Source: a bacterium (lineage in GTDB: Bacteria > Patescibacteriota > Patescibacteriia > UBA1558 > UBA10009). From it: 64,000 bases of DNA. This document shows positions 30,381-61,524 of the stretch, one piece after another. The notes beneath the pieces are model-generated. The model saw nothing but the letters and a program-made list of their open reading frames with translations. It was not told the origin of the DNA and ran no database searches. A program made the position numbers and the translations under genes. How positions within the stretch are numbered: position 1 is the stretch's first letter; each line of letters begins with the position of its first letter. The stretch is from contig JABHGM010000001.1 in assembly GCA_018672055.1 (NCBI GenBank), positions 672,977 through 736,976 on the forward strand, written 5' to 3'.

Positions 30381-31472
30381 TTACTTTTTATATAATATAT
30401 TTGTTTCATTTACCATTTTATTCCAACTATATGCTTTTATATTTTCTAAACCTTTTACAATTAATTCTTCTCTTAAATTCTTATCACTTAGTAACATATC
30501 AATTTTATCAAACATATCTGATTCATTATTTGGATCAAAATATATTACTGAATCTTTTAATATTTCTACTAAGCATGATTTATTTGAACTAATAACTGGT
30601 ACACTATGTGCTTGAGCTTCTAAAGGTGGTAAACCAAAACCTTCATAGAGTGAAGGAAATACGTATATTAAAGAATTTTGATATAAAGTTTTTAGTTCTG
30701 ACTCAGAAACATAACCAGTAAATATGACATTAGAATTATTTACTTTTTTTTGTAACTTCCTATAAAACTCATCAACTTCACCTACAAAAACTAATTGATA
30801 TTTATTCTGCTTATTTAATTTATTAAATACTTCTAGTAACTTATCTAAATTCTTATGAGGATAAGCAGATCCTACATATAGTAAATATGGTTTATCTATA
30901 TTAAATCTACTAATTTCTGATTCAGCTTGAGTTTTATCCAAAAAGTAACCTTCATAAATAACACTAATCTTTTCTTGAGGTACTTGATATAGAGAAACTA
31001 GATCAACTTTACCAAATTCACTAGGAACTATTATTTTATTTGCCTTAGCTACTGCATGCTTCATAATTCTCTTATAACCTTTTAATTTAAGGCTATATTG
31101 CCATTTTGGTAAATTAGTAGCCCGTGAATCAGGAAAATGATCAATTATTAAATCATGTATAGTTACAATATACTTTTTATTATATCTAAGTGGTACATTA
31201 AAATGTGGAAAGTGCATTAAATCAACTTTTTCTTTTTTTATGATCCAAGGTACTAATATTTGTTCTTTTAAGCTATACCATCTAGCATTCATTAAAACTT
31301 TTTTAACTCTTTTATTGGATGTACTAAACTCATCATAATTTTCATTAGTTAAAAAAATAACATAATAATTTTTATTATCAAGCTTAATAACACCATCTAC
31401 TAATTTTTTTATATACCTGCCTAGTCCCCTATATTTTGTACCATAGAGTCTAGCATCTATTCCTATTCTCAT
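30381..31472 (-). CDS. Family 4 glycosyltransferase
   Basis: EGFGLPPLEAQAHSVPVISS GT4 signature. Confidence 0.8.
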   Translation of the reverse strand: MRIGIDARLYGTKYRGLGRYIKKLVDGVIKLDNKNYYVIFLTNENYDEFSTSNKRVKKVLMNARWYSLKEQILVPWIIKKEKVDLMHFPHFNVPLRYNKKYIVTIHDLIIDHFPDSRATNLPKWQYSLKLKGYKRIMKHAVAKANKIIVPSEFGKVDLVSLYQVPQEKISVIYEGYFLDKTQAESEISRFNIDKPYLLYVGSAYPHKNLDKLLEVFNKLNKQNKYQLVFVGEVDEFYRKLQKKVNNSNVIFTGYVSESELKTLYQNSLIYVFPSLYEGFGLPPLEAQAHSVPVISSNKSCLVEILKDSVIYFDPNNESDMFDKIDMLLSDKNLREELIVKGLENIKAYSWNKMVNETNILYKK

Positions 31473-32572
31473 AGTTTAAATAGTTTATTAATTTCTAAAG
31501 CTGATTTAGACCAGCTAAACTTTAACATTTTATCCCTACCTTTATTTATTAAATCATCTCTTAATTTATTATCTGTTAATAGCTGATTAATTGCAAATGT
31601 TATTTCTGAAACATTATATGAATTAACTAAAAGTGCTGCATCACCTACTACCTCAGGCATTGATGAATTACTAGATACTATAACTGGACAACCTTGACAC
31701 ATAGCTTCAAGTGGTGGAAAACCAAATCCTTCATAGTAAGATGGCCATACTAACATCTTAGCATTTTTATATATCTCCCATCTTTGATCTGGTAATATGT
31801 AATCAAGTAAATATATTTGTTCTTTTTTAGAAGACTCTTTAACTTGTCTCTTTATTTTATTATATAACCAACCATTACCTCCGGCTATAACTAAATGTAA
31901 GTAAGGATCATTTATTTCTTCAAATGCTTTAATTATAGTGCCAACATTTTTACGAGGTTCTATGGTACCAAGATAAAGAATATATTTTTTAGGTAAAGCC
32001 ATATCAACAATTTTAAATCCAGTATTTTCTAACTCAATTCCAGGATATATAACTTGTATTTTAGATTCATCTAAACCATATAATTTAATTAAATCATTTT
32101 TTGTATTTTCTGATACTGCTATTATTTTATCTGCTTTACTTAATTTGTTCTTTGGATTAATTAAATAATGCCATAATCTCATCTTCCATGAATAAAAGTA
32201 AGGCAGTATCTTAAATGATAAATCATGTACAGTAATTATAGTTTTACAAGATTTGCTAACATGCAAAAAATTTAAATTAGGAAACCAAAAGTAATCAACA
32301 CCTTTAACCAACTTGTCTAATCTTCTAAGTTTTAAAATTAATACTAAATTTAATAGTTTATTAGGCACTCCCTTATGTATTAACTTAACATTAGGATAAC
32401 TCTTTAACTCTTTACGTATCTTAGTATCTAATGGAGTTGCTGAGTTATAGAATAGCTTATACTCATTCTCAGTATCTACTAGTAATAGATTTTTAAGTAT
32501 ATAAAAAGTATAAATACCAACACCAGTAAGCTTATTTCCTCCTAAACATCTAATATCCACACCTATTGTCAT
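31469..32572 (-). CDS. Family 4 glycosyltransferase
   Basis: EGFGFPPLEAMCQGCPVIVSS GT4 signature; start overlaps the previous gene. Confidence 0.8.
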   Translation of the reverse strand: MTIGVDIRCLGGNKLTGVGIYTFYILKNLLLVDTENEYKLFYNSATPLDTKIRKELKSYPNVKLIHKGVPNKLLNLVLILKLRRLDKLVKGVDYFWFPNLNFLHVSKSCKTIITVHDLSFKILPYFYSWKMRLWHYLINPKNKLSKADKIIAVSENTKNDLIKLYGLDESKIQVIYPGIELENTGFKIVDMALPKKYILYLGTIEPRKNVGTIIKAFEEINDPYLHLVIAGGNGWLYNKIKRQVKESSKKEQIYLLDYILPDQRWEIYKNAKMLVWPSYYEGFGFPPLEAMCQGCPVIVSSNSSMPEVVGDAALLVNSYNVSEITFAINQLLTDNKLRDDLINKGRDKMLKFSWSKSALEINKLFKL

Positions 32573-32663
32573 ATATAAGGATTTTACACTAAATATTAGC
32601 TTAAATAAAGCTAAATTTAGCCTCTGTTGATAATATATTAATATTTAAGTATAATTATGCCAT

Positions 32664-33641
32664 ATGAGTGATAAAATAGGTAAAAACATAGTAGTAACAG
32701 GTGGTGCAGGCTTTATTGGTTTCCACTTATCTAAGAGATTATTAGAACTAGGTCATAAAGTGACTATTATTGATAATTTAAGTGATTATTATAATACTAA
32801 GCTTAAAAATGATCGTTTAGCTGAAATCACTGAGAATCCAAACATAACAATACATGAAATAGACATATCTAAACCTCAAGAACTAAATGATATATTTAAA
32901 AATAATAATTTTGATTTAGTGTATCATATAGCAGCTCAACCTGGAGTTAGATATTCATTTGAAAATCCAGAAGTATATTTAACTACTAATATTGAAGGTA
33001 CAAATAATATATTAGAGTTGATGGTAAAGTATAAGATAAAAAATATTATATTTGCTTCTTCGTCATCAGTATATGGTAATTCAGATAAAGAATCATTTAG
33101 TGAAGATGATAACACGAGTAATCCTGTCTCACTTTACGCTGTTACTAAATTAACTTGTGAAAGCTTATTAAAATATTATCATCATCAATATAATTTAAAT
33201 GTAATTGCTTTTAGATTCTTCACAGTTTATGGTCCATGGGGTAGACCAGATATGGCACCCTTCCTATTTACAGAAAAAATCTCTAAAGGAAAAGAAATAG
33301 ATGTGTACAATAATGGCAAGCATCAACGTGACTTTACATATATAGATGACATAATAGAAGGTAATATAAAAGCATTGGATGTAATTAAAGATGGAATGTT
33401 TGAAATAATTAATTTAGGCAATTCTAAATCAATTGAACTAGAATACTTTATTTCAGTGATAGAAAAAGAATTAAATCAAACAGCAAAAAAGAATTATCTA
33501 CCTATGCAACCCGGAGATGTTGTAAAAACGTCAGCTGATATTAGTAAAGCTAAAGAGTTACTTAATTGGCAACCAACAACTTCAATAGAAGTAGGTATGA
33601 ATAAATTTATTAACTGGTATAAAGATTATTTTAAAATTTAA
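32664..33641 (+). CDS. NAD-dependent nucleotide-sugar epimerase, UDP-glucuronate 4-epimerase-like (SDR)
   Basis: [22 protein letters not shown]...[17 protein letters not shown]-terminus and YAVTK catalytic YxxxK closely resemble the UDP-GlcA 4-epimerase (Cap1J/LpsL) subgroup. Confidence 0.6.
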
Positions 33642-33652
33642 ATAGTATAAAT

Positions 33653-34684
33653 ATGAAAAAAGCATTAATAACCGGTATCACCGGACAAGATGGAAGTTAC
33701 TTAGCAGAATTCCTATTAAAAAAAGGTTATGAAGTATATGGTATACAACGCAAGGCTTCTACTTTTAATACAATTAGAATTAATCATATATATGATGATA
33801 ATCCTGAAGTAAAAAACTTTCACACAATATATGGTGATTTAACAGATGGTAGTAATTTAAGTAGAACTATAGAAAAAATAAGTCCAGATGAAATATATAA
33901 CTTAGGAGCACAAACTCATGTTCAAGTTAGTTTTCAAATTCCAGTCTATACTTCTAACGTAGATGGCTTAGGTGTTCTTAGAATGCTTGATGCAATTAAA
34001 GAATCTGAAATTAAAACTAAATTCTATCAAGCTTCTTCATCAGAAATGTTTGGTAATAGTAAAGAGTCTCCACAGAATGAAAATACAATATTTAATCCTC
34101 GTTCACCATATGCCTGTGCTAAAGTTTTTGCACATTATTTAACAGTTAATTACAGAGAAGCATATAATCTATTTGCTTGTTCAGGTATACTATTTAACCA
34201 TGAATCACCAAGAAGAGGCGAAACATTTGTTTCAAGAAAAATAACTAGAGGTTTTGCAAGAATTAAACTAGGGTTAGATGATAAATTAATACTTGGTAAC
34301 TTAGAAGCTAAAAGAGATTGGGGTTTTGCTCCTGAATATATAGAAGCTATGTGGTTAATGTTACAACAAGATAAACCTGATGATTTTGTAATAGCTACTG
34401 GAGAAAATCACACAGTAAGAGAATTTGTGGAAAAAACAGCTAAATATTTCGATTTTGATTTAGAATGGCAAGGAACAGGAGTAAAAGAAAAAGGAATTGA
34501 TAAAAAATCAGGTAAAATAATTGTAGAAATAAGTGAATCATACTTTAGACCAGCAGAAGTTGATGAATTAATTGGTGATTATTCAAAAGCTAAAGAATTA
34601 CTTAATTGGGAACCTAAAGTTAAATTCGACGAATTAGTTAATATAATGTCAGAAGCAGATTTTAAACAACAAGATAAAAAATAA
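33653..34684 (+). CDS. gmd: GDP-mannose 4,6-dehydratase
   Basis: [28 protein letters not shown]...; catalytic YACAK; full-length Gmd (343 aa). Confidence 0.85.
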
Positions 34685-34687
34685 TTT

Positions 34688-35626
34688 ATGATTAAAGACA
34701 AAAAAATATTAGTAACTGGAGGATCAGGTTTTCTAGGTAAACGTGTTATTAAACGTTTAAAAGAAGAAGGATATAATTTCTGTAGCACTTCTTTAAGTGA
34801 AGGTGTTGATTTCAGAAATTATAATCAAACAATTGAATATTTTAAAAAAGAAAAACCTGATATAGTAATTAACTGTGCAACATTTATAGGTGGTATAAAA
34901 TTTGGAATGGATCATAGAGGTGAAATATATTATAATAATACATTAATATCAAATAATTTAATTGAAGCTTCTAGAGAACTTAAAGTAGAAAGATTCATTA
35001 ACCCAATTTCAAACTGTTCATACCCAAATGTTGGAGATAGAAAATTTAAAGAAGAAGACTGGTGGCAAGGAGAACTAGATGAATCAGTTATGGTTTATGG
35101 AATGTGTAGAAAAATGAGCTGGGTTCAAGCTTACGCATATCATAAACAATATGGTATGAATTTTATTAACTTAATTATTCCAAATATGTATGGACCTGGT
35201 GATCATTTTGAAGAAGTAAGATCACATGCTCTCGGTGCTCTAGTCATGAAAATTGTTAAAGCTAAAGAAGAAAACTTACCAGAAGTAACTGTTTGGGGTA
35301 CAGGTAGCCCAGTAAGAGAATGGTTATATATAGATGATACAGTAGAAATATTATTAGAGTCACTTGAAATAGAACCATTTATTGAAGCAATAAACATTGG
35401 TGTAGGAAAAGGCGTTACTATAAAAGAATTAGCAGAAACTATAAAAGAACAAGTAGGTTATGAGGGTAATTTAACTTTTGATACAGAAAAACCAGATGGT
35501 GCTCCTTATAAAGCGATGGATATAACAAAGAGTAAAAAAATATTTAAAAATTTACCTAATACAGAATTAGATCAAGGAATTAAACAAACAATTGAATATT
35601 ATTACAAAGAAGTATTAAAAAAATAA
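34688..35626 (+). CDS. fcl: GDP-L-fucose synthase (GDP-4-keto-6-deoxymannose 3,5-epimerase/4-reductase)
   Basis: Fcl block ...PNMYGPGDHFEE...VTVWGTGSPVREWLYIDD...INIGVGKGVTIKELAETIKEQVGYEGNLTFDTEKPDGAP... aligns with E. coli Fcl (...PTNLYGPHDNF...VVVWGSGTPMREFLHVDD...VGYKGRVVFDASKPDGTP...). It lies directly after gmd. Confidence 0.8.
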   Translation: MIKDKKILVTGGSGFLGKRVIKRLKEEGYNFCSTSLSEGVDFRNYNQTIEYFKKEKPDIVINCATFIGGIKFGMDHRGEIYYNNTLISNNLIEASRELKVERFINPISNCSYPNVGDRKFKEEDWWQGELDESVMVYGMCRKMSWVQAYAYHKQYGMNFINLIIPNMYGPGDHFEEVRSHALGALVMKIVKAKEENLPEVTVWGTGSPVREWLYIDDTVEILLESLEIEPFIEAINIGVGKGVTIKELAETIKEQVGYEGNLTFDTEKPDGAPYKAMDITKSKKIFKNLPNTELDQGIKQTIEYYYKEVLKK

Positions 35627-35669
35627 TATAATAAAAAAACTGGTTTAAAAAAATCAGTTTTTTGTTTAT

Positions 35670-36923
35670 TTAATTCAATAACTTTTTATATATCTCAACT
35701 TGTCTATCAATTAAAATATTTGAGTCATAATTTTTTAATACATGGTCTCTGCCAAAATTACTAAACTCTGGCCATAAGTCTGAGCTATTTATATAAGTAA
35801 GAATTTTTTCAGCTAATTCTTTGTAATTATTCTCATCAACTAAAAAACCATTCTTACCATCAATGATCTGGTCAGGTAAACCACTATGTCTTGTAGTAAT
35901 TACCGGTAAACCTGTAGCTAAAGCTTGTGATATTACAGTATTCATAAATTATTCCATGTCCCCATCCTTAGCAGTTTTTGAAGGTTGAATAAACAAATGC
36001 ATATCCTTAAAATATTTAATTACATTCTCTAATTTCATATAACCTTTAAATTCTACTAAATTTTTTAAATTTAACTTACTATATAAGTCATATATTTCGT
36101 CTTTTAATGGACCATCCCCTATTATATAACATTTAAATTTTTTATTTGTTTTTACTTTAACAATAGCTAAAGCTTTTAATAAATCATCAAATCCTTTTTT
36201 CTCAACAAAATTACCTACAGAAATCAAATTAATCTGTTCATCATTTTCTAAACTTCTTTTATTAAAAGGATATGACTCAACATCAATACTAACTGGTAAA
36301 ACTTCTACCCTATCTTCAGGAAAACCATACTCCACTACCCTTTCTTTCATATTATTTGACATAACTAAAAAGTTGGAAGATTGTTTTATTAATTTATCAT
36401 AATAGCTACTTGGTTTTTCTCTAAATGATCTAGATACATCATACCCATATAAAGTAGTAACTATCTTTTGTTTTAAATTAAGAATTTCTTTAACTATTAA
36501 ATATCTATTTGCTACTGGTCCAAAATGACAATGAACTAAATCAAACTTTTTATTAATAAATGGAGTTACCCAAAAAATTAATTTAAGTGAAGAAGCGTTT
36601 CTACCATACTTTTTAAAATTAAATAAATCTATTAAGATTATTGGTTTAGTAAATAATATTAATATAATTTTAGGAATAGCAAGTAGGATCCTAAGTAAAT
36701 AATTTTTTGGCATTTCTAAATAATTAATAATATCTTTCATATTATATTCCTGAAATCTATCTGAAATTATATCATTACCTTTAAAATCTTTTCTAAATGA
36801 AAATACTTCTACTTCTATTCCCCTATCTTTTAAATCAGCAATTTGATTGATAATAAAAGTTTCGGAAACTCTGGGAAAGTTTCCGACTACAAAAGCAACT
36901 TTAATTTTATTATCATTTTTCAT
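35670..36923 (-). pseudogene. GT4 glycosyltransferase interrupted by a single in-frame TAA (35949-35951) at the conserved EGFG motif
   Basis: ORFs 35949..36923 and 35670..35945 are in the same frame, separated by TAA-TTT-ATG, and read ...FIQPSKTAKDGDME*FMNTVISQALATGLPVITT... This reconstitutes the GT4 E(G)F...E...G.PV signature, with the stop at the Gly position. Confidence 0.55.
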
Positions 36924-38016
36924 AAAATTCTCTAATCTTCAAACATACATATTTAATTTCTTTAACAGTAAGCTCAGGACTAAGTGGTAAAGAAAGAATC
37001 TCTTTTGAAATTTTACTAACTACAGGAAGATCACTATTTTTTAATTTTAAAAAATTATAACATTTTTGTAAATGAATTGGCTTAGGATAATGAATACCAG
37101 TTTGAATATTGTGCTTTGTTAAATATTGTTGTAACTTATCCCTTTTACTAGTTTGTATTACAAATAAATGCCAAACTCTTTTAATCTTTTTACTAGAACT
37201 AAGTGGTAATTTAATTGGCAAACCTTTTAATTCATTCAAATATATTTTAGCTAATTGATTTCTCTCTTTATTCAAACGAGCAAGTTTAGTTAAACCAAAA
37301 CTTAATAATCCGGCCTGTACTTCATCAAGACGTGAATTATATCCTTCATATACAGAATTATTACGCCCAACTTCGCCATAATGCCTAAGTGCCCTTAATT
37401 TATCACCTAGAGCCTTATTATTCGTTACAACAGCACCAGCATCACCAAAGGTACCTAATATTTTAGTAGGATAAAAGCTAAAACAACTAATATCACCAAA
37501 TGTACCCAGAAATTTATTATTATACTTAGCACCAAAAGATTGAGCCACATCTTCAATTAAAAATAAGCCATACTTTTTAGCTAAGCTTTTTATTTTTAAA
37601 ATTTCTGCAGGATAACCATATAAATGGACCAGAACAATAGCTTTAGTTTTCTTAGTAATTTTTTTTTCAATTAACTCAACATCTATATTGTATGTATCTA
37701 CGTTTATATCAATAAGTATAGGCATAGCACCTGTTTGTCTAATTGCACTAATGGTAGGTACTGCAGTATGAGATGTAGTAATTACTTCATCTTTCTCAGT
37801 TATACCTAATGCTTTTAATGCTAAAAATAATGCATCAGTACCAGAACTTACACCTATAACATGCTTAATATTGAATAATTTACTTAACTTTTTTTCTAAT
37901 TTATCTAATTCTTTACCTAAAATAAAATTACCACTACTGAATATTCTATCCATTACTTTAATAATTTCTTTCTTATTTAATCTATATCTTTTTTTAAAGT
38001 TATTAAATAATATCAT
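36913..38016 (-). CDS. DegT/DnrJ/EryC1/StrS-family PLP-dependent sugar aminotransferase
   Basis: ...HVIGVSSGTDALFLALKALGI...; full-length match to sugar 3-/4-aminotransferases (FdtB/QdtB-like by context). Confidence 0.8.
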   Translation of the reverse strand: MILFNNFKKRYRLNKKEIIKVMDRIFSSGNFILGKELDKLEKKLSKLFNIKHVIGVSSGTDALFLALKALGITEKDEVITTSHTAVPTISAIRQTGAMPILIDINVDTYNIDVELIEKKITKKTKAIVLVHLYGYPAEILKIKSLAKKYGLFLIEDVAQSFGAKYNNKFLGTFGDISCFSFYPTKILGTFGDAGAVVTNNKALGDKLRALRHYGEVGRNNSVYEGYNSRLDEVQAGLLSFGLTKLARLNKERNQLAKIYLNELKGLPIKLPLSSSKKIKRVWHLFVIQTSKRDKLQQYLTKHNIQTGIHYPKPIHLQKCYNFLKLKNSDLPVVSKISKEILSLPLSPELTVKEIKYVCLKIREFYEK

Positions 38017-53541: not shown

Positions 53542-54275
53542 TGCTTATCAGTAGCTACTTCATTCAAATTAAAATTTTCATAACATTCAAACTTAGTAAA
53601 GCCAGCTAAACCTAAAGCGTCTTTTATTTGATTAGGTGTCCAAAGATACTGATCTAAATCGTATTTATCTTCTATTACTTCCCCATTTTCTTTAGTTACT
53701 CGTAAATTATATCTAAGAGTAGTTTTTTGATTAATAAAATCAGTATTACTTTCTAACTTACAATTAATTTCTTCATTATTATTTTTAACTGAATATTCTT
53801 TACCCTTAGGTGGATCTAATAAAGCTGCAGAGCCATTCCAACAATCAAATATATATACAGAATCATCACTTAATGAATTATATATAGCATTAAAAAAACT
53901 AACTAACTCATTAAACTTAGGAATATATGTAACAACATTAAATAAGCTAAAACAAATATCAAAATCTTTTAAATCTAAATCTTGTATTCGTTTATCATAT
54001 ATTTCTACATTAGATATATTATTTTCTTTTATTTTCTCCCTACATCTAGTTATCATTTCTTGATCTACATCTATTGAAGTAATTGGAATATTTAATTTAG
54101 CTAGTTCTAAAGTATGACTACCAGTACCACAACCTATCTCTAATATATTTTTAGGTTCATGATTTAAATACTTCTTAGCAATTTCAAGAGACTTAAATAC
54201 TTCTTCTTCGTAATCTTTTGAAGTAAATAATATATCGTAATACTTGTAGAATAAATTACTCATAATACTTTTCAA
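53511..54275 (-). CDS. Class I SAM-dependent methyltransferase
   Basis: ILEIGCGTGSHTLELA motif I; 254 aa. Confidence 0.7.
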   Translation of the reverse strand: MKSIMSNLFYKYYDILFTSKDYEEEVFKSLEIAKKYLNHEPKNILEIGCGTGSHTLELAKLNIPITSIDVDQEMITRCREKIKENNISNVEIYDKRIQDLDLKDFDICFSLFNVVTYIPKFNELVSFFNAIYNSLSDDSVYIFDCWNGSAALLDPPKGKEYSVKNNNEEINCKLESNTDFINQKTTLRYNLRVTKENGEVIEDKYDLDQYLWTPNQIKDALGLAGFTKFECYENFNLNEVATDKHWKIMFVCQK

Positions 54276-55362
54276 TTACAGTACATACATAATCTAATTC
54301 TTCTTCACTAAGCGTTGGGAAAGATGGCAAACATATTCCATACTCATAGCCATATATAGAATTAGGATAATTTTTACTATCCAAAGTTTCTGGAATAATA
54401 TCTTTTAAATACTTAAAACATGGTTGCTTGTGAAGTGGATAGAAAAATGTTCTTACTTCAACTTCATTTTCTGACATATATTTCATTAACTTTTCAGCTT
54501 CTTCAACTAAAATTCCAACCCTAAATGGAATCCAATCAGCACCATCAAATGGTTTAAAGAAATTAATTTCTTTTATCTTACTTAACCTATTAAAGTAATA
54601 ATCTTTTATCTTATTCTTTCTTTCAATTATTTGATCTAACTTTCCTAGCTGAACAAGTCCTACAGCAGCTTGTAAATCAGTCATTCTAAAATTATAACCT
54701 ATTTCTGGATGTATAAATGAACCTCTTTCAATACGACCCTGATTTCTTAAATATAATAACTTCTCATACTTTTTCTTATCATTAGTAACTACTAAACCAC
54801 CTTCTGCTGTAGTAATGGTTTTATCAGCAAAAAATGAAAATATACTAACATCACCATAAGTACCAGCATGCTTATCTTTGTAATGGACACCAATAGCTTG
54901 AGCAGCATCTTCAACAACACTCAAATTGTGTTTTTTAGCAAATTCCATTACTTCATCCATTTTAGCCATAGTGCCATAAATATGGACAGGCATAATAGCT
55001 TTAGTCTTAGGATTAATAAATTTCTCAGCACTATCTAAATCAAGCTGAAAATTCTCTTTATTTACATCAATAAATACTGGTACTCCACCAGCCATTTCAA
55101 CTGCTGATGCTGAACCTAAAAATGTAAAATCAGGAACTAATACTTGATCTCCTGGTTTTAAATCAATTGCTCTTAAAGCTAAATAAATTGCTAAAGTACC
55201 ATTAGGAGCTAACACGCCATACTTAGCACCAGTTAAATCTAATAACTGCTTTACAAATTCTTTTGACTTAGGTCCTTCAGTAATCCAGTTTTCTGTAAAA
55301 CATCCTTCAATCTCTTTATATTCTTCTTCTCCAACCCATGGTTTAAATTGATTTACTTTCAT
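54256..55362 (-). CDS. DegT/DnrJ/EryC1/StrS-family sugar aminotransferase (second copy)
   Basis: ...GVLAPNGTLAIYLALRAIDL...; PLP-Lys region FSFFADKTITTAEGG. Confidence 0.8.
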   Translation of the reverse strand: MKVNQFKPWVGEEEYKEIEGCFTENWITEGPKSKEFVKQLLDLTGAKYGVLAPNGTLAIYLALRAIDLKPGDQVLVPDFTFLGSASAVEMAGGVPVFIDVNKENFQLDLDSAEKFINPKTKAIMPVHIYGTMAKMDEVMEFAKKHNLSVVEDAAQAIGVHYKDKHAGTYGDVSIFSFFADKTITTAEGGLVVTNDKKKYEKLLYLRNQGRIERGSFIHPEIGYNFRMTDLQAAVGLVQLGKLDQIIERKNKIKDYYFNRLSKIKEINFFKPFDGADWIPFRVGILVEEAEKLMKYMSENEVEVRTFFYPLHKQPCFKYLKDIIPETLDSKNYPNSIYGYEYGICLPSFPTLSEEELDYVCTVIEKYYE

Positions 55363-55363
55363 A

Positions 55364-56680
55364 TTATTTTTTATTATAGTTTTTTAAATGTCTAAAAATA
55401 AAGTTACCTTTTAAAACAAATATGAATAACTTAATACCATGTTTAAATACATGTGTTTTAGTTTCACCATATTCTCGTGGGTAATATTTCATAGGTATTT
55501 CACCTAATTTTAAATTAAATCTAGCTGCACCATATAATAGCTCAAAATCACCAAATGGATCATGTAAATTAAGTGATCCCCAATTATTATATATATCCTG
55601 ATAACTTTCTTTGGAAATAGCTTTAATACCACTTAAAACATCAGTCATATAACTCTTTAAGAACCAAGAAAACCAATTAGCAAATACCATATTACCTAGC
55701 TTATTAACTAAAGGCATAGATTTAAGAGATAATGGATATACAAAACGACTTCCTTCAATAAATTCTAAACGTCCACTAGCAATAGCATCATAGAAATATT
55801 TAATATCATCTGGTTCAGAAGTTCCATCACCTTCATATAATATAATTACATCACCACTTGCATCTTTAAAGCCAACTCGTATAGCATCACCTTGACCAAT
55901 ACCAGGCTGACCTATTACTCTAATATTCTTATCAGAATACACATCTTTAACTCTATGTATCTCTTCTAAAGTATTATCCGTTGAATGACCTTCTACAAAT
56001 AATATTTCTTGATTTTGACATACCTTAGGTAATGCTTTAACAATAGGTTCAATATTTTCTTTTTCATCTCTTACTGTAATACAAATAGTTAAACTTTTTT
56101 CTTCAGACTCATCCTTTACAAGCAATCTAGCAACTATAAATTGATTAATTTTAAATATATCAAATAATGGAATAATAATAGATATTAAATTAATAATATT
56201 ACCAAAGAATAATATATTAGTAGGCCATAATGTTTTTTTATAAGTCCTGATAGTTTCATAACCAAAAGATTTTAAATATGTATTAGTATCATGTACTGAT
56301 AACCAATTATGATTTAATTCTTTATTTTTTATCCTAAATAGACTACCTAGCTTTAAAAATGGCATCCATAGATAATTATGCTGATAAATTATTACTCGAG
56401 TACTTGAAGTGATACCTGATTTAATATTTCTAAGTACATCACAAATATTTTCACTAATACCTAGTACTGAAAATATAATAATATAATCATATTTTTTATC
56501 TGGTACAAATGTATCAATATCTTTATTTACTATATCTAAACTCTTAGGCCTAGCATTTTTTAAAAAATCATAATTATATTCACCAATAAAAAGTATATTC
56601 TTACCTTCAGGTATTAAAAAACTTAAAGCACTTATTGCCTGATGCCAAAAATATTTATGCCATTTATATTTCTTATACAT
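55364..56680 (-). CDS. Two-domain protein: N-terminal unknown (~190 aa) + C-terminal GT2 glycosyltransferase
   Basis: C-terminal half LTICITVRDEKENIEPIVKAL...FVEGHSTDNT...ILYEGDGTSEPDD is Dpm1/GtrB-like GT2. Confidence 0.65.
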   Translation of the reverse strand: MYKKYKWHKYFWHQAISALSFLIPEGKNILFIGEYNYDFLKNARPKSLDIVNKDIDTFVPDKKYDYIIIFSVLGISENICDVLRNIKSGITSSTRVIIYQHNYLWMPFLKLGSLFRIKNKELNHNWLSVHDTNTYLKSFGYETIRTYKKTLWPTNILFFGNIINLISIIIPLFDIFKINQFIVARLLVKDESEEKSLTICITVRDEKENIEPIVKALPKVCQNQEILFVEGHSTDNTLEEIHRVKDVYSDKNIRVIGQPGIGQGDAIRVGFKDASGDVIILYEGDGTSEPDDIKYFYDAIASGRLEFIEGSRFVYPLSLKSMPLVNKLGNMVFANWFSWFLKSYMTDVLSGIKAISKESYQDIYNNWGSLNLHDPFGDFELLYGAARFNLKLGEIPMKYYPREYGETKTHVFKHGIKLFIFVLKGNFIFRHLKNYNKK

Positions 56681-56691
56681 ATTATTTTATT

Positions 56692-57807
56692 TTAAACATG
56701 AATAATATCTAATATTTTTTTTACTCTATTTTCCCAAGTAAACTTCTTAACAAATTCATAACCATTTTCAATCTCTTTATCATTATTTTTAATTAATATA
56801 TTATTTATTTTATTTACTAAATCTTCTACATTATCAACTTCATAAAAAGTTACTTCCTTATTAGTTACTATATTTGTCATACTCTCAACTTCAGGAGCTA
56901 AAACCGGAACCTTAGAAGCTAAATATTCAAATAATTTTATAGGTGAAGTATATTTAATTGATTCTTTACTATTTTTATTTGCAGTTATAATTAAAATATC
57001 TGCTGACTTTAAATATTTAGCAACCATGTCTCTCTTTTTAGTATTTACAAGCTTAATATTTGATAAATTATTTATTATTTCTTTATCTAATAAATCAGTA
57101 CCACCAGCTAATACCAATTCAATATTATTATCTAATTTTTCAGCTGCTTTTAATAATATGTCAGTTCCTTTCCAGGTATAGTAATGACCTAAATACATTA
57201 CAATTTTCTTATCATTAGATAAATCTAATTCATCTCTTAATTCATTTTTAGTCTTTTGAATCGAGTCAAAATCATTTAATTCAACACCATTAGGACAACT
57301 ATGTACATTAGTAAAGTTATTTTCTAAAAATTCATCTTTAGTACCTATTGAATTAGTAATTATTAAATCAGCTTTTTTACTTAACTTAAAAAATAATTTT
57401 TGATTACTTTCTGGTATAAAATGACATTCAAATATAGTCCTATAACCTATCTTAGCAAAGTACCAAGCTATTAAAACTTCTCTAGTATATATAGTTAATT
57501 CTCTTGAATTGAATAGATATCTAAATGATAATGATATAAGGAAAGTAACCTGCTTAACTAGATATGTAAATTTTGGAAATATCTTATTTAAAAATTTTAA
57601 ATCAATTACTAAATACTTTTTAATATCAAAATTCTTACTAACACCATAATAACTAAATGTTTCTTCTTTAATACAATTTCTAAAATTAGGTATTACTAAT
57701 TCAATATCAACTCCCATCTTTGAAAATTTTTCACAAGTTCTAATTATTTGATAACCTCTAGCTTTTTCAGTAGGTATTCTAGAATTAGTTATATACTCAA
57801 TCTTCAT
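56692..57807 (-). CDS. Family 4 glycosyltransferase
   Basis: GT-B architecture with ...KLFEYLASKVPVLAPEV C-terminal motif. Confidence 0.65.
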   Translation of the reverse strand: MKIEYITNSRIPTEKARGYQIIRTCEKFSKMGVDIELVIPNFRNCIKEETFSYYGVSKNFDIKKYLVIDLKFLNKIFPKFTYLVKQVTFLISLSFRYLFNSRELTIYTREVLIAWYFAKIGYRTIFECHFIPESNQKLFFKLSKKADLIITNSIGTKDEFLENNFTNVHSCPNGVELNDFDSIQKTKNELRDELDLSNDKKIVMYLGHYYTWKGTDILLKAAEKLDNNIELVLAGGTDLLDKEIINNLSNIKLVNTKKRDMVAKYLKSADILIITANKNSKESIKYTSPIKLFEYLASKVPVLAPEVESMTNIVTNKEVTFYEVDNVEDLVNKINNILIKNNDKEIENGYEFVKKFTWENRVKKILDIIHV

Positions 57808-58424
57808 ATATCTAGATTATTAGTTATTTCTAAAAACACTTCATCAATATCTCTATTTGCATCAACTATTTTTACTTTACAAGGCAAGCTAGGAAATAGC
57901 TTTTTAAAAGTTACAAAATTAGTACGAACTACTTCTTTCCATTTTTTTAAATACTCAGCAGTTAAAAATGGTCTAGTAAAATGCCCACGCTTTTCAATTC
58001 TAGAATCTAACACATCATAAGGTGCTTCAAAAAATATTAGTAAGTCAGGAAATAATAAATATTTAGAATATTTTTTAATTTCTTCCTCTGTTACTTCTCG
58101 TTCAAATATAGATCCAACACTCTGCATAAAACCTTGATCTAATAAAGCTAAATCATATTTTGTAGCTTTTTCAAACTTCGCATTAGTATTTAAAAATACA
58201 TTCATGAATTTAAAATAGAACATTTTAAAAGAAACTGAGTTTCTAAATACATATATTAAACGTACAATGAATTTAATAGGATGCTTAATAAGAAATAACA
58301 AGTTATACCAAATAAGTTCATACTTATTATCAATTCTAATTCTTTGTATATTCTTTTCACCTACTAATCTTCTAGCAATTGTAGATTTACCAGTTCCTGG
58401 TAAACCAGAAAATTCAATAATCAT
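57804..58424 (-). CDS. P-loop NTPase of unknown function (kinase/sulfotransferase-like?)
   Basis: Walker A FSGLPGTGKSTIARRL at residues 5-20; 206 aa; no further family motif recognised. Confidence 0.45.
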   Translation of the reverse strand: MIIEFSGLPGTGKSTIARRLVGEKNIQRIRIDNKYELIWYNLLFLIKHPIKFIVRLIYVFRNSVSFKMFYFKFMNVFLNTNAKFEKATKYDLALLDQGFMQSVGSIFEREVTEEEIKKYSKYLLFPDLLIFFEAPYDVLDSRIEKRGHFTRPFLTAEYLKKWKEVVRTNFVTFKKLFPSLPCKVKIVDANRDIDEVFLEITNNLDI

Positions 58425-59182
58425 TACTTTTTAAATTTAATAGCGTAAGACTCTGATAAAAAACCACTTAATTTATTCAAAGGGAGTCTATATAATATAA
58501 AGTGGACTAGCCTATTTATTATATTTGATTTAAATACAGGTACAGAAATAGTAACAGGATATTCTGTTACTTCTCTAAAACCTACTTCTTTAAATATACA
58601 TTTTAATCTACATGCTTTAACTTGACCTTGATGCATTCTAGAATTCTTTCTTTTAAGAAGCTTATTAATAAAATCCTTAGGAGTTTTAGTAATTAAATAC
58701 CCCTCACCATTATTATTCAACATATCAAATATTTTCTTTACTGCTTCTTGCTTGTCTGGAATATATTCTAAAACTCTTGAGGAAAAGAAAACATCATACT
58801 TTTTATTTGGTATATAATCTAAAAAATTAGAAACAGTATAATCTATATCATTAAAATCTTTTAAATTATTCTTAGCTTGCTCTAACATATTTTCTGAGAC
58901 ATCAACAAGCTTCAAACTATCAAATTCACTATTCTCATGCATTACACGAGTCCAAGTTCCAGCACCAGGACCTAGTTCAAAATAGCTTCCTTTAAACTTT
59001 TTACCATTTAAAAAATGACCTTTAATTGCTTTAAGAGTCATTATATAGCCTGTTTTTGCAGGGCTAGATTTAAACCAACGATGATATTCGTAGTTTTCCA
59101 CATACTTATTTTTGGCTAAGTTATCGTATTTTTTTTGTATTTGTTGTGTATCCATATAGTCAAAATATTGAATATTATACAA
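58424..59182 (-). CDS. Class I SAM-dependent methyltransferase
   Basis: YFELGPGAGTWTRVM motif I; 252 aa. Confidence 0.7.
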   Translation of the reverse strand: MYNIQYFDYMDTQQIQKKYDNLAKNKYVENYEYHRWFKSSPAKTGYIMTLKAIKGHFLNGKKFKGSYFELGPGAGTWTRVMHENSEFDSLKLVDVSENMLEQAKNNLKDFNDIDYTVSNFLDYIPNKKYDVFFSSRVLEYIPDKQEAVKKIFDMLNNNGEGYLITKTPKDFINKLLKRKNSRMHQGQVKACRLKCIFKEVGFREVTEYPVTISVPVFKSNIINRLVHFILYRLPLNKLSGFLSESYAIKFKK

Positions 59183-59287
59183 TATTTTAGATAATTTATC
59201 AAATTATTTTTATATTTTATCCCCATTTATTATACATTGACTTTTAATTATATATAATTATAATACATTATGTAATATATTAAACAT

Positions 59288-59512: not shown

Positions 59513-59513
59513 T

Positions 59514-60317
59514 ATGGATCATTTAGATGAGCTAGAAAATAAATCAATATATATTATTAGAGAAGCTTTTCATGATTTTAAAGACATGGCTCTTTTATGG
59601 TCTATTGGTAAAGACTCGACTACCCTACTTTGGCTTTGCATGAAAGCTTTTTTTGGTAAACTACCTTTTCCAGCAGTTCACATTGACACTACTTTTAAGT
59701 TTCCTGAAATGTATGAGTTTCGCGATAAGTACGCTAAAGAGTTTAATTTAAACTTAATTGTTGGTAAAAATGAAGAAGCTTTAAAAAAAGGAGTGAATTA
59801 CCAAGACACTGATACTTTTGAATGCACTCACCTCTTAAAAACAGAAGCTTTAAAACAAACTATTGCAAAACATAAGTTTAAAGCATTATTAGTTGGTATA
59901 AGACGTGATGAACATGGTATTAGAGCTAAAGAAAGATACTTTTCACCTAGAAATAAAGATTTTAAATGGAATTACAAAGATCAACCTGCAGAACTATGGG
60001 ATCAATATAAGTCAAAAGCAGAAGAAGATGTTCATTTAAGAGTTCATCCTCTACTCCATTGGACTGAACAAGATATTTGGGAATATACTAAGCGAGAAAA
60101 TATTCCAGTTAACAAACTTTACTTTGCAAAAGATGGTAAACGTTTTAGAAGTTTAGGTTGTATGCCAATTACTAAACCAATTAAATCAGAAGCAGATACA
60201 ATAGATAAAGTAATTGAAGAAATTAAAAATACCAAAGAAGCAGAAAGAGCAGGCAGATTACAAGATAAAGAACAAGCAAATACTATGGAAAAATTAAGAA
60301 GCTTAGGTTACATGTAA
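59514..60317 (+). CDS. cysD: Sulfate adenylyltransferase subunit 2
   Basis: PAPS-reductase-like PP-loop (SIGKDSTTLLWL) and full-length CysD/NodP similarity; 267 aa. Confidence 0.85.
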   Translation: MDHLDELENKSIYIIREAFHDFKDMALLWSIGKDSTTLLWLCMKAFFGKLPFPAVHIDTTFKFPEMYEFRDKYAKEFNLNLIVGKNEEALKKGVNYQDTDTFECTHLLKTEALKQTIAKHKFKALLVGIRRDEHGIRAKERYFSPRNKDFKWNYKDQPAELWDQYKSKAEEDVHLRVHPLLHWTEQDIWEYTKRENIPVNKLYFAKDGKRFRSLGCMPITKPIKSEADTIDKVIEEIKNTKEAERAGRLQDKEQANTMEKLRSLGYM

Positions 60318-60318
60318 T

Positions 60319-61524
60319 ATGATAAAAGAATATTTAAAATTTGTAATAGTTGGACATGTTGATCACGGTAAGTCTTCTTTAATTGGCAGATTACTTTTTG
60401 ATACTAAGTCTATTCCACAAGAAAAAATAGATGAAGTAAAAACCGTTTGCGAAGCACTAGGCAAAGACTTTGAATTCTCTTACCTCATGGATTATTTAAC
60501 TGAGGAAAGAGAAAAAAATATTACTATAGATACAACGCAAACTTTTTTTAAAACTAAACAAAGAGATTACGTTATTATAGATGCTCCAGGACATAAGGAA
60601 TTTTTAAAAAACATGATAACTGGTTCTTCTCTAGCAGAAGCTGCCATACTTATTGTAGATGCTGATGAAGGTATAAAAGAACAAACTAAAAGACATGCAT
60701 ACCTATTAAACCTACTTAATTTAAAACAAATAATTGTTGTTATAAATAAAATGGATTTAGTAGATTACCAAGAAAAACGTTTTAAAGAAGTAGAACAAGA
60801 AGTAATAACTCATTTAAATAAACTTAATTTAAAACCAAACTATATTATCCCCATATCTGCTAAAAATGGTGATAATATAGCTACTAAGGATAATAATTTA
60901 AATTGGTTTCAAGGTCCAACTGTTTTAGATGCTCTAGATTCATTTACTAATCAATTTCAAGAAGAAAACCTTCCTTTAAGACTCCCCGTACAAGATATCT
61001 ATGAAGATATGGTAGTTGGTAGAATTGAGAGTGGTAAGATAGAAAAAAACCAAGAAATTACTATTTTACCTAGTAATGTGAGTAATAAAGTATTATCCAT
61101 TAAAAAGTGGCGTGAAGAGCTAGATTTAGCTTCTTACGGACATTCAATTGGTTTAAAGTTAGATGATATACAAGTTAAAAGAGGTCAGATTATATGTGAT
61201 AAAGATAACTTACCTCAAGTAGTAAATAATTTTAAAGCAACTATATTTTGGATGAGTAGTAATGAAATAAAAGTAAATGAAATAGTATCTCTTAAAATAG
61301 TTACTCAAGAACAAGATGTAGTAATTAAAAAAATCCATAAACTTATGGACTCCTCTACTTTAGAAGAAATAGATGGTGATGTTATAAAAGAAACATATAT
61401 TGCAGAAGTAGAATTTAAATCAGATAAACCACTCGTAATCGAGAATTATAATAAGATACCAGAAATGGGTAGATTTGTTTTAATACAAAATGAAGATATT
61501 GTAGCTGGTGGAATTATAGTATAA
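60319..61524 (+). CDS. cysN: Sulfate adenylyltransferase subunit 1 (GTPase), without fused APS-kinase domain
   Basis: GHVDHGKSSLIGRLL G1, DAPGHKEF, NKMDL motifs and EF-Tu-like domains II/III; 401 aa. Confidence 0.85.
   Translation: MIKEYLKFVIVGHVDHGKSSLIGRLLFDTKSIPQEKIDEVKTVCEALGKDFEFSYLMDYLTEEREKNITIDTTQTFFKTKQRDYVIIDAPGHKEFLKNMITGSSLAEAAILIVDADEGIKEQTKRHAYLLNLLNLKQIIVVINKMDLVDYQEKRFKEVEQEVITHLNKLNLKPNYIIPISAKNGDNIATKDNNLNWFQGPTVLDALDSFTNQFQEENLPLRLPVQDIYEDMVVGRIESGKIEKNQEITILPSNVSNKVLSIKKWREELDLASYGHSIGLKLDDIQVKRGQIICDKDNLPQVVNNFKATIFWMSSNEIKVNEIVSLKIVTQEQDVVIKKIHKLMDSSTLEEIDGDVIKETYIAEVEFKSDKPLVIENYNKIPEMGRFVLIQNEDIVAGGIIV

Follow-up and report, generated by a model that had tools for sequence, protein, structure and literature searches.

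What might a gene cluster be making that sets three radical S-adenosylmethionine (SAM) enzymes among a crowd of glycosyltransferases, and on what might those enzymes act? The question is raised by positions 30381 to 61524 of a 64,000-nucleotide stretch, here called the window, of contig JABHGM010000001.1 (positions 672,977 to 736,976, forward strand; assembly GCA_018672055.1), from a bacterium of the Patescibacteriota whose window proteins have their closest homologues in Portnoybacteria, Parcubacteria, and Komeilibacteria. The most likely product of this ~31-kb cluster is a heavily decorated sugar chain on the cell surface, and we give a probability of about 0.6 to the reading that it makes a complex cell-surface glycoconjugate by means of two modules, each pairing a GT2 glycosyltransferase and a GT-C glycosyltransferase with a class-B-type radical SAM enzyme (rSAM), grafted onto a Wzx-dependent oligosaccharide pathway. 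What is new here is the GT2-rSAM-GT-C module itself, which is conserved and spread across bacteria and archaea. Family calls were made by Pfam and NCBIfam profile scans, with bit scores compared with the family cut-offs, and membrane segments were predicted by hydropathy. The open reading frames (ORFs) lie where a preliminary description of the interval had placed them, and nearly every family named there was borne out by the profile searches, which confirmed six GT4 and three GT2 glycosyltransferases, a Wzx flippase, two DegT aminotransferases, FdtA, a formyltransferase, four stand-alone class-I methyltransferases, two rSAMs with a B12-binding domain and one with a SPASM domain, two PMT-type GT-C enzymes, Gmd, an Fcl-like protein, and CysDN. 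Every ORF of the interval except the P-loop kinase-like ORF at 57804 has a glycan-related or candidate tailoring assignment; gene content, packing, and conservation all uphold the view of a dedicated surface-glycan locus. The genes of the two proposed modules and the third rSAM are as follows.

40692-41738, minus strand: radical SAM enzyme with SPASM domain (PF04055, 63.9 bits; PF13186, 58.4 bits)
46304-47743, minus strand: rSAM1, with N-terminal B12-binding-like Rossmann domain and class-B architecture (Pfam B12-binding and Radical_SAM)
47743-48441, minus strand: Dpm1/AglJ/ArnC-like GT2, 232 amino acids (aa), no transmembrane segment, candidate polyprenyl-phosphate sugar synthase (PF00535, 116 bits)
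48438-49793, minus strand: GT-C of PMT_2 type, nine hydrophobic segments, DDAYQY in the first loop (PF13231, 41.9 bits; cut-off, 26.1)
49790-51385, minus strand: GT-C of PMT type, nine hydrophobic segments, GDDESF in the first loop (PF02366, 26.5 bits; cut-off, 22.7)
51394-52857, minus strand: rSAM2, second radical SAM enzyme of class-B architecture (Pfam B12-binding and Radical_SAM)
52879-53541, minus strand: class-I SAM methyltransferase MT_c (Methyltransf_11, 70.5 bits)
53511-54275, minus strand: class-I SAM methyltransferase MT_b (Methyltransf_31/25)
55364-56680, minus strand: fusion of a methyltransferase-like domain (Methyltransf_23, weak, E 5e-4), one transmembrane segment, and an AglJ/Dpm1-like GT2 (PF00535, residues 198-327)

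Profile searches found both the Cys cluster and the B12-like domain in rSAM1 and rSAM2, with 62.6 and 81.7 bits, respectively, to the B12-binding profile PF02310 (cut-off, 32.1) and 88 and 80.5 bits to PF04055. The cluster motif CPGRCT[FY]C, of the form CX3CX2C, falls at C216/C220/C223 in rSAM1, where the three cysteines are invariant among 26 orthologues, and at C199/C203/C206 in rSAM2; C273, C287, and C307 of rSAM1, considered as ligands of an auxiliary cluster, are also invariant, and two of these are kept in rSAM2 within general class-B motifs. The two enzymes had been introduced as a paralogous pair; at 28% identity they are distant paralogues. An AlphaFold2 (AF2) model of rSAM1 with a mean predicted local distance difference test (pLDDT) score of 91.8 has the class-B architecture, and its top Foldseek matches were AprD4 (TM-score, 0.76), MgmA, TsrM, OxsB, CysS, and TokK, all at no more than 20% identity; AprD4 is also the nearest solved sequence (E 2e-20, 18% identity). 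Among NCBIfam models, the best for rSAM1 was HpnJ (TIGR03471; 231 bits versus a cut-off of 577.6), followed by BchE (188 bits), and the best for rSAM2 was BchE (208 bits versus 481), followed by HpnJ (162 bits). Methylase models scored lower and below cut-off (bits/cut-off: HpnR, 106/650; KedN5, 95/700; PhpK, 130/600; MgmA-type, 109/360). The C-terminal tail of rSAM1 is basic and aromatic rich, with a net charge of +9 over 60 residues, and a scan of the radical SAM enzymes for amphipathic helices that might mediate membrane association found nothing distinctive beyond this tail. The SPASM enzyme carries CNLRCPLC at C49 (CX3CX2C) and six further cysteines, with Cys at 265, 283, 284, 327, and 330; it reached no specific NCBIfam cut-off, and its nearest solved structures, BtrN, BlsE, and DesII, act on sugars. 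A carbohydrate substrate is common to several of the nearest characterized relatives, namely, HpnJ and AprD4 for the B12-type enzymes and BtrN, BlsE, and DesII for the SPASM enzyme. MoeK5 likewise acts on a carbohydrate, and for both HpnJ and MoeK5 that carbohydrate is lipid attached. The substrate of rSAM1 and rSAM2 is probably a carbohydrate as well.

The partners of these enzymes may point to sugars carried on a lipid. The GT2 at 47743 has a DAD motif (QDADLEY), and AglJ (109 bits), ArnC (65 bits), and PgfS (65 bits) are within its five strongest NCBIfam matches, with PpgS (52 bits) and the Halobacterial Dol-P-hexose transferase lower down, all below cut-off. AglJ is the top match both of this protein and of the fusion at 55364 (109 and 99.5 bits versus a cut-off of 325), and by its sequence family the fusion is a second candidate polyprenyl-phosphate sugar synthase. 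In an alignment of 58 GT-C sequences that includes the two window proteins, the first-loop Asp is near-invariant and 45 sequences match PMT_2; searches of PDB sequences with both GT-C proteins gave no matches. Because each GT2 resembles polyprenyl-phosphate glycosyltransferases and lies near one B12-type rSAM and one GT-C, we propose two modules, in which module 1 would comprise the GT2 at 47743, rSAM1, and the GT-C at 48438, and module 2 would comprise the fusion at 55364, rSAM2, and the GT-C at 49790.

Do these genes travel together elsewhere? More than 2,000 relatives of rSAM1 are detectable, and the best, at 55 to 73% identity, are in Patescibacteria, Woesearchaeota, Nanoarchaeota, Asgard archaea, Saganbacteria, Omnitrophota, and Elusimicrobia; orthologues are still 40 to 46% identical in Planctomycetes, Bacteroidales, Desulfobacterota, and others, and a scan of one genome per species gave at least 512 loci. 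Among 79 genome loci, the gene next door to the rSAM1 orthologue was a GT2 in 22/75 cases upstream and 11/73 downstream, the next commonest neighbors being PMT_2, a further B12-type rSAM, a methyltransferase, and DegT. In the loci with complete flanks of ±6 kb (n = 31), a GT-C lay within 6 kb of the rSAM1 orthologue in 65%, a Dpm1-like GT2 in 39%, either of the two in 68%, and another B12-type rSAM in 39%. The orthologous group of rSAM2 is smaller, with ~30 sequences at 53% identity or more (53 to 67%), in the same genomes as rSAM1; in the cultured Desulfocarbo indianensis, for example, the two enzymes have counterparts at 53% (rSAM2) and 42% (rSAM1) identity. A methyltransferase-GT2 fusion stands just upstream of the rSAM2 orthologue in two of three loci (L084 and L085), and in the third (L086) its place is taken by a 441-aa GT2 that is 35% identical to the window fusion and has no methyltransferase match. 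In all three, a methyltransferase gene adjoins the rSAM2 orthologue, and a GT-C gene or a weak or unannotated GT-C-like gene is nearby.

Comparison of whole neighborhoods brings in the remaining genes of the long minus-strand array to which the modules belong, listed here in order of position.

35670-36923, minus strand: GT4 glycosyltransferase GT4_d, two ORFs, last gene of the array (Pfam)
36913-38016, minus strand: DegT-family pyridoxal phosphate (PLP) sugar aminotransferase DegT_b (PF01041, 360 bits; below every NCBIfam cut-off)
38018-38467, minus strand: FdtA/WxcM-like 3,4-ketoisomerase of nucleoside diphosphate (NDP)-4-keto-6-deoxyhexoses (PF05523, 150.7 bits; cut-off, 23)
38451-39230, minus strand: class-I SAM methyltransferase MT_d (Methyltransf_31/25/11)
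39203-40702, minus strand: Wzx-type oligosaccharide flippase with more than 12 hydrophobic segments (Polysacc_synt_3, 249.5 bits; hydropathy)
41735-42643, minus strand: sugar N-formyltransferase of the ArnA N-domain type (Formyl_trans_C, 63 bits; NCBIfam ArnA, E 1.8e-39, below cut-off)
42646-43407, minus strand: divergent CE4/NodB-like deacetylase or deformylase candidate, 253 aa (conserved motifs; profile versus PDB)
43410-44270, minus strand: GT2 glycosyltransferase GT2_x (PF00535, 125 bits)
44263-45276, minus strand: GT4-type glycosyltransferase GT4_c (Glycos_transf_1, 80 bits)
45273-46304, minus strand: GT4-type glycosyltransferase GT4_b (Glycos_transf_1, 79 bits)
54256-55362, minus strand: DegT-family PLP sugar aminotransferase DegT_a (PF01041, 342 bits)
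56692-57807, minus strand: GT4 glycosyltransferase GT4_a (Glycos_transf_1, 61 bits)
57804-58424, minus strand: P-loop nucleoside/nucleotide-kinase-like protein (AAA_33, dNK, and Thymidylate_kin, all weak)
58424-59182, minus strand: class-I SAM methyltransferase MT_a, first gene of the array (Methyltransf_12/11)

Two conserved blocks can be told apart in this array: block A, made up of MT_a, the P-loop gene, GT4_a, the methyltransferase-GT2 fusion, a methyltransferase, rSAM2, the two GT-C genes, the GT2, and rSAM1; and block B, made up of GT4_b, GT4_c, GT2_x, a variable segment, the SPASM enzyme, Wzx, and GT4_d. Locus L084, from the metagenome-assembled genome GCA_043820875.1, is collinear with the window over 12 genes at 31 to 73% identity, in the order MT_a (46%), P-loop (44%), GT4_a (31%), fusion (35%), rSAM2 (65%), GT-C (52%), GT-C (52%), GT2 (73%), rSAM1 (69%), GT4_b (54%), GT4_c (56%), and GT2_x (60%). 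The same block A is found in the Parcubacteria (L008), whereas other genomes keep less of it: only PMT-rSAM1-GT2 in the Woesearchaeota (L002, with an LPG_synthase_TM gene also in the context), rSAM1, a GT2-methyltransferase fusion, and PMT_2 in the Saganbacteria (L003), and GT2-rSAM2-methyltransferase in Desulfocarbo (L085) and Omnitrophota (L086), the last with a weak PMT_2 match and a further B12-type rSAM. SPASM orthologues stand beside or near Wzx in L087 and L088. The variable segment of block B holds the CE4-like and formyltransferase genes in the window and carbamoyltransferase, GDSL-like, and AlgX-like genes in L088, and the near-collinear loci L084, L087, and L088 have no close counterpart of FdtA, DegT_b, MT_d, or DegT_a; DegT genes recur in other loci. 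A conserved scaffold whose sugar decoration differs from strain to strain would be expected to give this pattern. The rSAM-methyltransferase-GT2-GT-C core is thus kept together with glycosyltransferases in other genomes, and the rSAM genes do not belong to unrelated operons. The preliminary description had held that ordinary O-antigen/capsule loci rarely have three rSAMs; rarity does not hold in these lineages: L001 (Patescibacteria, 6334-21473) has four B12-type rSAMs in 21 kb among GT4, GT2, and methyltransferase genes, one of them in a 719-aa rSAM-methyltransferase fusion, L084 has two B12-type and two SPASM enzymes, and L089 (Nitrospirae, 4854-13014) has four SPASM enzymes beside a glycan export system of the ABC-transporter type.

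Conservation extends across domains. The archaeal rSAM1 orthologues, in Woesearchaeota (L002/L006), Nanoarchaeota (L010-L011), and Promethearchaeota (L012-L013), are 61 to 68% identical to that of the window and as close as those of other bacterial phyla, the adjacent GT2 of L006 is 52% identical to its window counterpart, and the triad as a whole is 60 to 73% identical between Patescibacteria and Woesearchaeota, Nanoarchaeota, and Asgard archaea. Since bacterial and archaeal copies are near-70% identical, the sequences suggest a recent inter-domain transfer of this surface-glycan module among small-celled uncultured lineages.

How might the parts work together? The direct observations are which genes are present, how closely they are packed, and that the module is conserved across phyla and domains; the steps proposed here are built on the families of the proteins. 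Gmd and the Fcl-like reductase would provide a GDP-6-deoxyhexose such as fucose, with an epimerase of the short-chain dehydrogenase/reductase (SDR) family also present; the FdtA-like ketoisomerase, a DegT aminotransferase, and the ArnA-type formyltransferase would provide a formamido-dideoxyhexose, with a CE4-like hydrolase gene beside the formyltransferase and a second DegT at hand. The products of block B (GT4_b, GT4_c, GT2_x, the SPASM enzyme, Wzx, and the split GT4_d) would build up and then flip an oligosaccharide carried on a polyprenyl lipid, with an initiating phosphoglycosyl transferase presumably encoded elsewhere. In block A, a Dpm1/AglJ-like GT2 would load one sugar onto polyprenyl phosphate, a class-B-architecture rSAM and the neighboring SAM methyltransferases would tailor the loaded sugar, and, once this had been flipped, a PMT-type GT-C would transfer it to an acceptor outside the membrane, which might be a protein, a lipoglycan, or a wall polymer. 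We infer that the rSAMs act on the sugar and at the lipid-linked stage. A bolder statement, which we offer tentatively and think possible rather than probable, is that the triad of GT2, class-B-type rSAM, and GT-C is an undescribed, horizontally shared pathway in which radical chemistry (C-methylation, carbocyclization, or deoxygenation) remodels a polyprenyl-phosphate-linked monosaccharide before its attachment to the surface.

Several points weigh against this account. The locus encodes no initiating phosphoglycosyl transferase, polymerase, ligase, or acceptor of its own; about one-third of the full-flank rSAM1 loci have neither GT2 nor GT-C, so that adjacency is frequent and not universal; and glycan loci in general often contain GT2 and GT-C genes, the neighbor percentages above having no matched background rate. 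The Pfam call for the GT-C at 49790 is marginal (26.5 versus 22.7 bits). rSAM1 and rSAM2 fall below every NCBIfam cut-off, neither B12-type orthologous group has a characterized enzyme, and the stage at which these enzymes act, whether on an NDP-sugar, a lipid-linked monosaccharide, or the finished glycan, is read from gene order alone. Nor can cobalamin binding by either enzyme be inferred from sequence, because AprD4, the closest structure, binds none (PMC12931638).

The chemistry of the B12-type enzymes is the point at which the preliminary description, which had proposed C-methylation of the GenK/Fom3 type, went further than the evidence; the proposal is plausible and unproven. C-methylation is the commonest precedent and the single most likely reaction, with odds that we put a little short of even, and ring contraction and diol dehydration are live alternatives, since neither reaction type nor cobalamin use is readable from the sequences of rSAM1 and rSAM2. 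The same locus and modules would be in place if the B12-domain enzymes were instead non-methylases that carry out a radical rearrangement or elimination on the sugar, either turning a lipid-linked hexose or hexosamine by ring contraction into a carbocyclic pseudo-sugar, as HpnJ or calditol synthase might, or dehydrating a 1,2-diol to a deoxysugar in the manner of AprD4. We consider this rather unlikely, although four separate class-I methyltransferases are already there for methylation, and the closest structure (AprD4) is that of a sugar diol dehydratase. The best profile matches of rSAM1 and rSAM2, HpnJ and BchE, are both non-methylases, but they are far under the family cut-offs, and similarity networks place HpnJ together with the C-methylases Fom3 and MoeK5, so that proximity is no guide to chemistry (PMC9204698). 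HpnJ has been proposed to ring-contract a lipid-linked glucosamine that HpnI installs and HpnK deacetylates (PMC13459092), and the window has a GT2 adjoining rSAM1 and CE4-like genes; an annotated hpnJ on a plasmid, however, shares just 28.7% identity with rSAM1 across 77% of the query and is no nearer than a homologue (31.5%) in a ribosomally synthesized and posttranslationally modified peptide (RiPP) context in Clostridium. Plasmid homologues, the best only ~30% identical and in mixed contexts (RiPP in Clostridium, glycan in Solidesulfovibrio), are uninformative on function. Methylases also make up the majority of characterized class-B enzymes.

If the rSAMs modified a lipid, such as the polyprenyl carrier or a glycolipid anchor, and not the sugar, they would join HpnP and HpnR, known lipid-tail enzymes of this kind; GrsA/B and Tes are lipid-tail radical SAM enzymes too. 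Many class-B and related rSAMs act on lipid hydrocarbon moieties (PMC13459092), the basic tail of rSAM1 is compatible with binding to a membrane surface, and the archaeal locus L002 combines GT2, GT-C, and LPG_synthase_TM, but the window locus has no lipid-biosynthesis genes, and the presence of several paralogues per glycan locus (four in L001), each by a glycosyltransferase or methyltransferase, fits sugar-specific tailoring better, as do the rSAM-methyltransferase fusion and the several GT2-methyltransferase fusions, which point to a shared small polar substrate; we judge a lipid target very unlikely. A secreted glycosylated small molecule, aminoglycoside-like or a glycolipid natural product, is more improbable still: although the nearest solved relatives of all three rSAMs include the antibiotic-pathway enzymes AprD4, BtrN, BlsE, DesII, OxsB, and TokK, the Wzx flippase and two GT-C enzymes imply lipid-linked assembly with transfer outside the membrane, nine glycosyltransferases stand with no aglycone, cyclitol, nonribosomal peptide synthetase, polyketide synthase, resistance, or exporter genes, the flanking genes (MurJ, DUF4012, and a CE4 deacetylase) belong to the cell envelope, and ordinary glycan contexts surround the module in about 80 genomes. 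As for a chance juxtaposition of unrelated operons, with the rSAM genes serving cofactor or housekeeping biosynthesis, the Joint Genome Institute (JGI) annotations of these rSAM proteins as BchE-like cyclase or YgiQ and the presence of four transcription units within the interval might suggest it, but the rSAM genes share a strand with glycosyltransferase genes that they overlap or adjoin (gaps of -4 to +21 bp) and keep glycan neighbors across phyla, no tetrapyrrole or cofactor genes are present, and synteny effectively refutes the idea.

The proposed glycoconjugate pathway shares parts with several known systems and coincides with none of those compared. The Arn (PmrHFIJKLM) L-Ara4N pathway of Enterobacteria modifies lipid A; in it, ArnD acts on a lipid-linked sugar, which the GT-C ArnT then transfers outside the membrane. 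The window resembles it in the proposed logic of tailoring a sugar after loading it on a lipid carrier and in having DegT/ArnB-like, ArnA-N-like formyltransferase, ArnC-like GT2, CE4-like (compare ArnD), and PMT_2/ArnT-type GT-C proteins, but it is not an Arn system: no match reaches its NCBIfam equivalog cut-off, the searches turned up neither an ArnA C-terminal decarboxylase nor Ugd or ArnE/F, the organism has no evident lipid A context, and Arn lacks radical SAM enzymes, methyltransferases, Wzx, and multiple GT4s. Haloferax Agl N-glycosylation, with the GT2s AglJ and AglD, the methyltransferase AglP, the flippase AglR, and the GT-C AglS, and the mycobacterial PpgS/Rv3779 and Ppm1/Pmt systems are alike in that a Dpm1-like GT2 makes polyprenyl- or dolichyl-phosphate monosaccharides and a GT-C adds them outside, with a Wzx-like flippase and methyltransferases alongside; they differ in that the AglJ scores here are low (109 and 99.5 versus 325), no STT3/AglB is in the locus, and we know of no radical SAM enzyme in the Agl or mycobacterial PpgS/Ppm1 systems. 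The class-B sugar C-methylases GenK, Fms7, and MoeK5, together with Fom3, share their architecture with rSAM1, as judged from its model and its structural matches to TsrM, TokK, CysS, and MgmA: a B12-like domain of Rossmann type at the N terminus, then the radical SAM barrel with CX3CX2C, and a further domain at the C terminus; identity to solved members is 20% or less, no curated threshold is reached, and those enzymes come from antibiotic gene clusters, whereas here the context is a cell-surface glycan locus in which cobalamin use and methyl transfer are putative. AprD4, the 1,2-diol dehydratase of apramycin 3'-deoxygenation, works with a partner reductase, AprD3; it is the solved protein closest to rSAM1 in structure and sequence, its substrate is an amino sugar, and its two domains are laid out alike. 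It differs in sharing only 18% identity and in using no cobalamin (PMC12931638), and no obvious AprD3 counterpart is adjacent to rSAM1. The hopanoid HpnI-HpnK-HpnJ branch offers the parallel of an amino sugar on a lipid, a deacetylase, and a B12-domain rSAM proposed to remodel the lipid-linked sugar (PMC13459092, PMC9204698), but rSAM1 reaches 231 of 578 bits at 28.7% identity, the window has no squalene-hopene cyclase or hpn genes, and the hopanoid pathway lacks GT-C and Wzx.

Most class-B radical SAM enzymes are without known function, and none acting in cell-surface glycan biosynthesis is named in the reviews consulted, from 2022 and 2026. Two orthologous groups, the larger with more than 2,000 relatives, now have a conserved and experimentally tractable set of partners (GT2, methyltransferases, and GT-C), which narrows the search for substrates to lipid-linked or nucleotide sugars. 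Remodeling at the lipid-linked stage, if true, would represent glycan tailoring of a new class and would give a large block of unassigned B12-type rSAMs their first physiological role, and HpnJ-like or AprD4-like chemistry, if true, would place carbasugars or unusual deoxysugars in cell envelopes. Bacteria of the candidate phyla radiation (CPR) and DPANN archaea are largely episymbionts, with a cell-surface chemistry that is essentially unknown; both are among the carriers of the module, and their attachment to hosts presumably depends on the cell surface. The structure of the glycan had been expected to be probably undescribed; no description of this GT2/rSAM/GT-C module was found in the literature searched; an Elusimicrobia preprint considered as one proved unrelated, as it concerns rSAM genes adjoining nitrogenase paralogues.

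Which sugars would the locus supply? Besides the array, the interval holds the following genes.

30381-31472, minus strand: GT4 glycosyltransferase GT4_e (Glycos_transf_1, 130 bits)
31469-32572, minus strand: GT4 glycosyltransferase GT4_f (Glycos_transf_1, 121 bits; 30% identical to GT4_e)
32664-33641, plus strand: extended-SDR NDP-sugar epimerase/dehydratase (Epimerase, 213 bits; epimerase-type motif SSSSVYG)
33653-34684, plus strand: GDP-mannose 4,6-dehydratase Gmd (TIGR01472, 540 bits; cut-off, 415)
34688-35626, plus strand: GDP-L-fucose synthase-like reductase/epimerase (NF047922, 226 bits; below the cut-off of 500)
59514-60317, plus strand: sulfate adenylyltransferase subunit 2 CysD, divergent from the array (NF003587, 360 bits; cut-off, 195)
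60319-61524, plus strand: sulfate adenylyltransferase subunit 1 CysN, 401 aa, without APS-kinase domain (TIGR02034, 340 bits; cut-off, 336.1)

Fucose or a related GDP-6-deoxyhexose is likely in the glycan, because Gmd is an equivalog match; of the gmd/fcl pair named earlier, Gmd stands, and Fcl does not reach equivalog level. The ORF at 32664, which had been called a UDP-GlcA epimerase from its SSSSVYG motif, is a generic extended SDR whose best NCBIfam match is GalE, at 175 bits versus a cut-off of 262. A formamido sugar is plausible: the 3,4-ketoisomerase, aminotransferase, and N-formyltransferase of an NDP-3-formamido-3,6-dideoxyhexose pathway are all present at the Pfam level. FdtA, FdtB, and a formyltransferase make dTDP-3-formamido-3,6-dideoxyhexoses, and Gmd, Per, and WbkC make GDP-N-formylperosamine; the window has the FdtA-domain isomerase, DegT, N-formyltransferase, and Gmd of these routes but neither RmlA nor RmlB, its sole 4,6-dehydratase being Gmd, of the GDP series, and its formyltransferase is nearer to ArnA, the formyltransferase domain of which is its closest solved relative (E 3e-23), than to FdtF or WbkC (5e-5 and 3e-7). 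The neighboring ORF at 42646 has no NCBIfam match and no Pfam match even at E ≤5. Its family has more than 2,500 representatives at 50% clustering, with conserved motifs (HD, HxxxxH, HRP, D..W, and LxH) like those of NodB/CE4 enzymes, and a family profile run against PDB put chitin and peptidoglycan deacetylases on top (E 4.6e-4 to 0.1); a single-sequence AF2 model was of low confidence (pLDDT, 39). Going by these motifs, the ORF appears to represent a family of sugar deacylases that has yet to be described. Elsewhere, this domain also occurs in fusions with UDP-GlcNAc 2-epimerase, GNAT acetyltransferase, or sulfotransferase domains.

The glycan had also been suggested to be sulfated, which is unsupported beyond cysDN: no APS_kinase or Sulfotransfer match was found among the window ORFs scanned, and the P-loop ORF at 57804, considered as an APS (adenosine 5'-phosphosulfate) kinase or sulfotransferase, has generic nucleotide-kinase similarity only. 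A CysN homologue (40% identity) lies less than 10 kb from the rSAM1 orthologue in L043 (Woesearchaeota), and an association of cysN with glycan loci may recur. The pair formed by the P-loop gene and MT_a (57804-59182, minus strand), kept in L084 at 4363-5666 with the identities given above, combines a kinase-like protein with a methyltransferase and recalls the methyl-phosphate capping of glycan termini by WbdD.

GT4_d is split into two pieces, 35949-36923 (324 aa) and 35670-35945 (91 aa), by an in-frame TAA followed by an ATG restart; the break falls between ...DGDME and M(N/T)T..QALATGLP, within the usual EX7E region. A private nonsense mutation or pseudogene was rejected, as the orthologue in L088 (10978-12203, 61% identical) is split at the same residue with another junction and frame; the split looks conserved from this comparison, although the homologue in L087 (39%) is intact at 417 aa. 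Genetic code 25, in which UGA encodes Gly, was rejected as well: the stop codon inside the gene is a TAA, and 10 of 61 window ORFs terminate in TGA (TAA, 41; TAG, 10), consistent with the standard bacterial code. GC content is ~26% across the whole window; this low value, the small genome (roughly 1 Mb), and the DUF4012 and MurJ genes fit a patescibacterial source.

The interval had been described as one contiguous, mostly co-oriented block. Its main part holds to this: 23 minus-strand ORFs run from 59182 down to 35949 (24 if the second piece of the terminal GT4, to 35670, is included), and we treat them as one array because the gaps between ORFs are only -31 to +21 bp. The interval as a whole nonetheless comprises four transcription units, which were inferred from spacing and orientation because scans for consensus promoters and terminators gave counts no higher than in shuffled sequence; the sole suggestive sites are promoter-like matches at 11 of 12 positions in the divergent gaps at 59.2 kb and 32.6 kb. 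The units are the long array; cysDN, divergent from the array start across a 331-bp gap; epimerase-gmd-fcl on the plus strand, convergent with the array end; and the GT4 pair, divergent from the epimerase, with a DUF4012 membrane protein gene 58 bp downstream on the same strand. Glycan-related genes extend past both stated ends (30381 and 61524), as follows.

27656-30322, minus strand: DUF4012 protein, 888 aa, one predicted transmembrane segment, possible member of the locus (PF13196, 90.7 bits; hydropathy)
61571-62134, minus strand: NUDIX hydrolase, possible nucleotide-sugar hydrolase, locus membership uncertain (PF00293, 53 bits)
62902-63582, minus strand: CE4 polysaccharide deacetylase with N-terminal transmembrane segment, locus membership uncertain (PF01522, 63 bits; hydropathy)

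Within 27656-63582, Pfam scans gave no match to Wzy_C, Wzz, Bac_transf, or Glycos_transf_4. The earlier statement that Wzy and Wzz are missing is thus correct inside the locus, yet a Wzy_C-domain protein with a Wzx of its own is encoded 28 kb away (1164-2636). It belongs to a second, separate glycan cluster (176-7482, minus strand) of a GT2, the Wzy_C-domain protein, a GT2, two GT4s, and a Wzx-type flippase (6025-7482); between it and the main locus lie ribosomal-protein, cell-division, and tRNA-synthetase genes.

Among the flanking features, the DUF4012 protein has a Lys-rich N terminus, and its gene lies between the glycan locus and murJ (25197-26777, minus strand, as is DUF4012). On the other side, the plus-strand ORF at 62333-62854 (173 aa) matches no family and is made up of a unit of ~80 residues that occurs twice in tandem (local alignment score, 115). 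An rpsI-rplM-rplQ-rpoA-rpsD-rpsK-rpsM block, identified by eye, occupies 7558-10954 on the minus strand; its RpoA-like ORF is only 252 aa long and ends in a Lys/Glu-rich tail. A single tRNA-Thr(CGU) gene is located at 20886-20963 on the plus strand.

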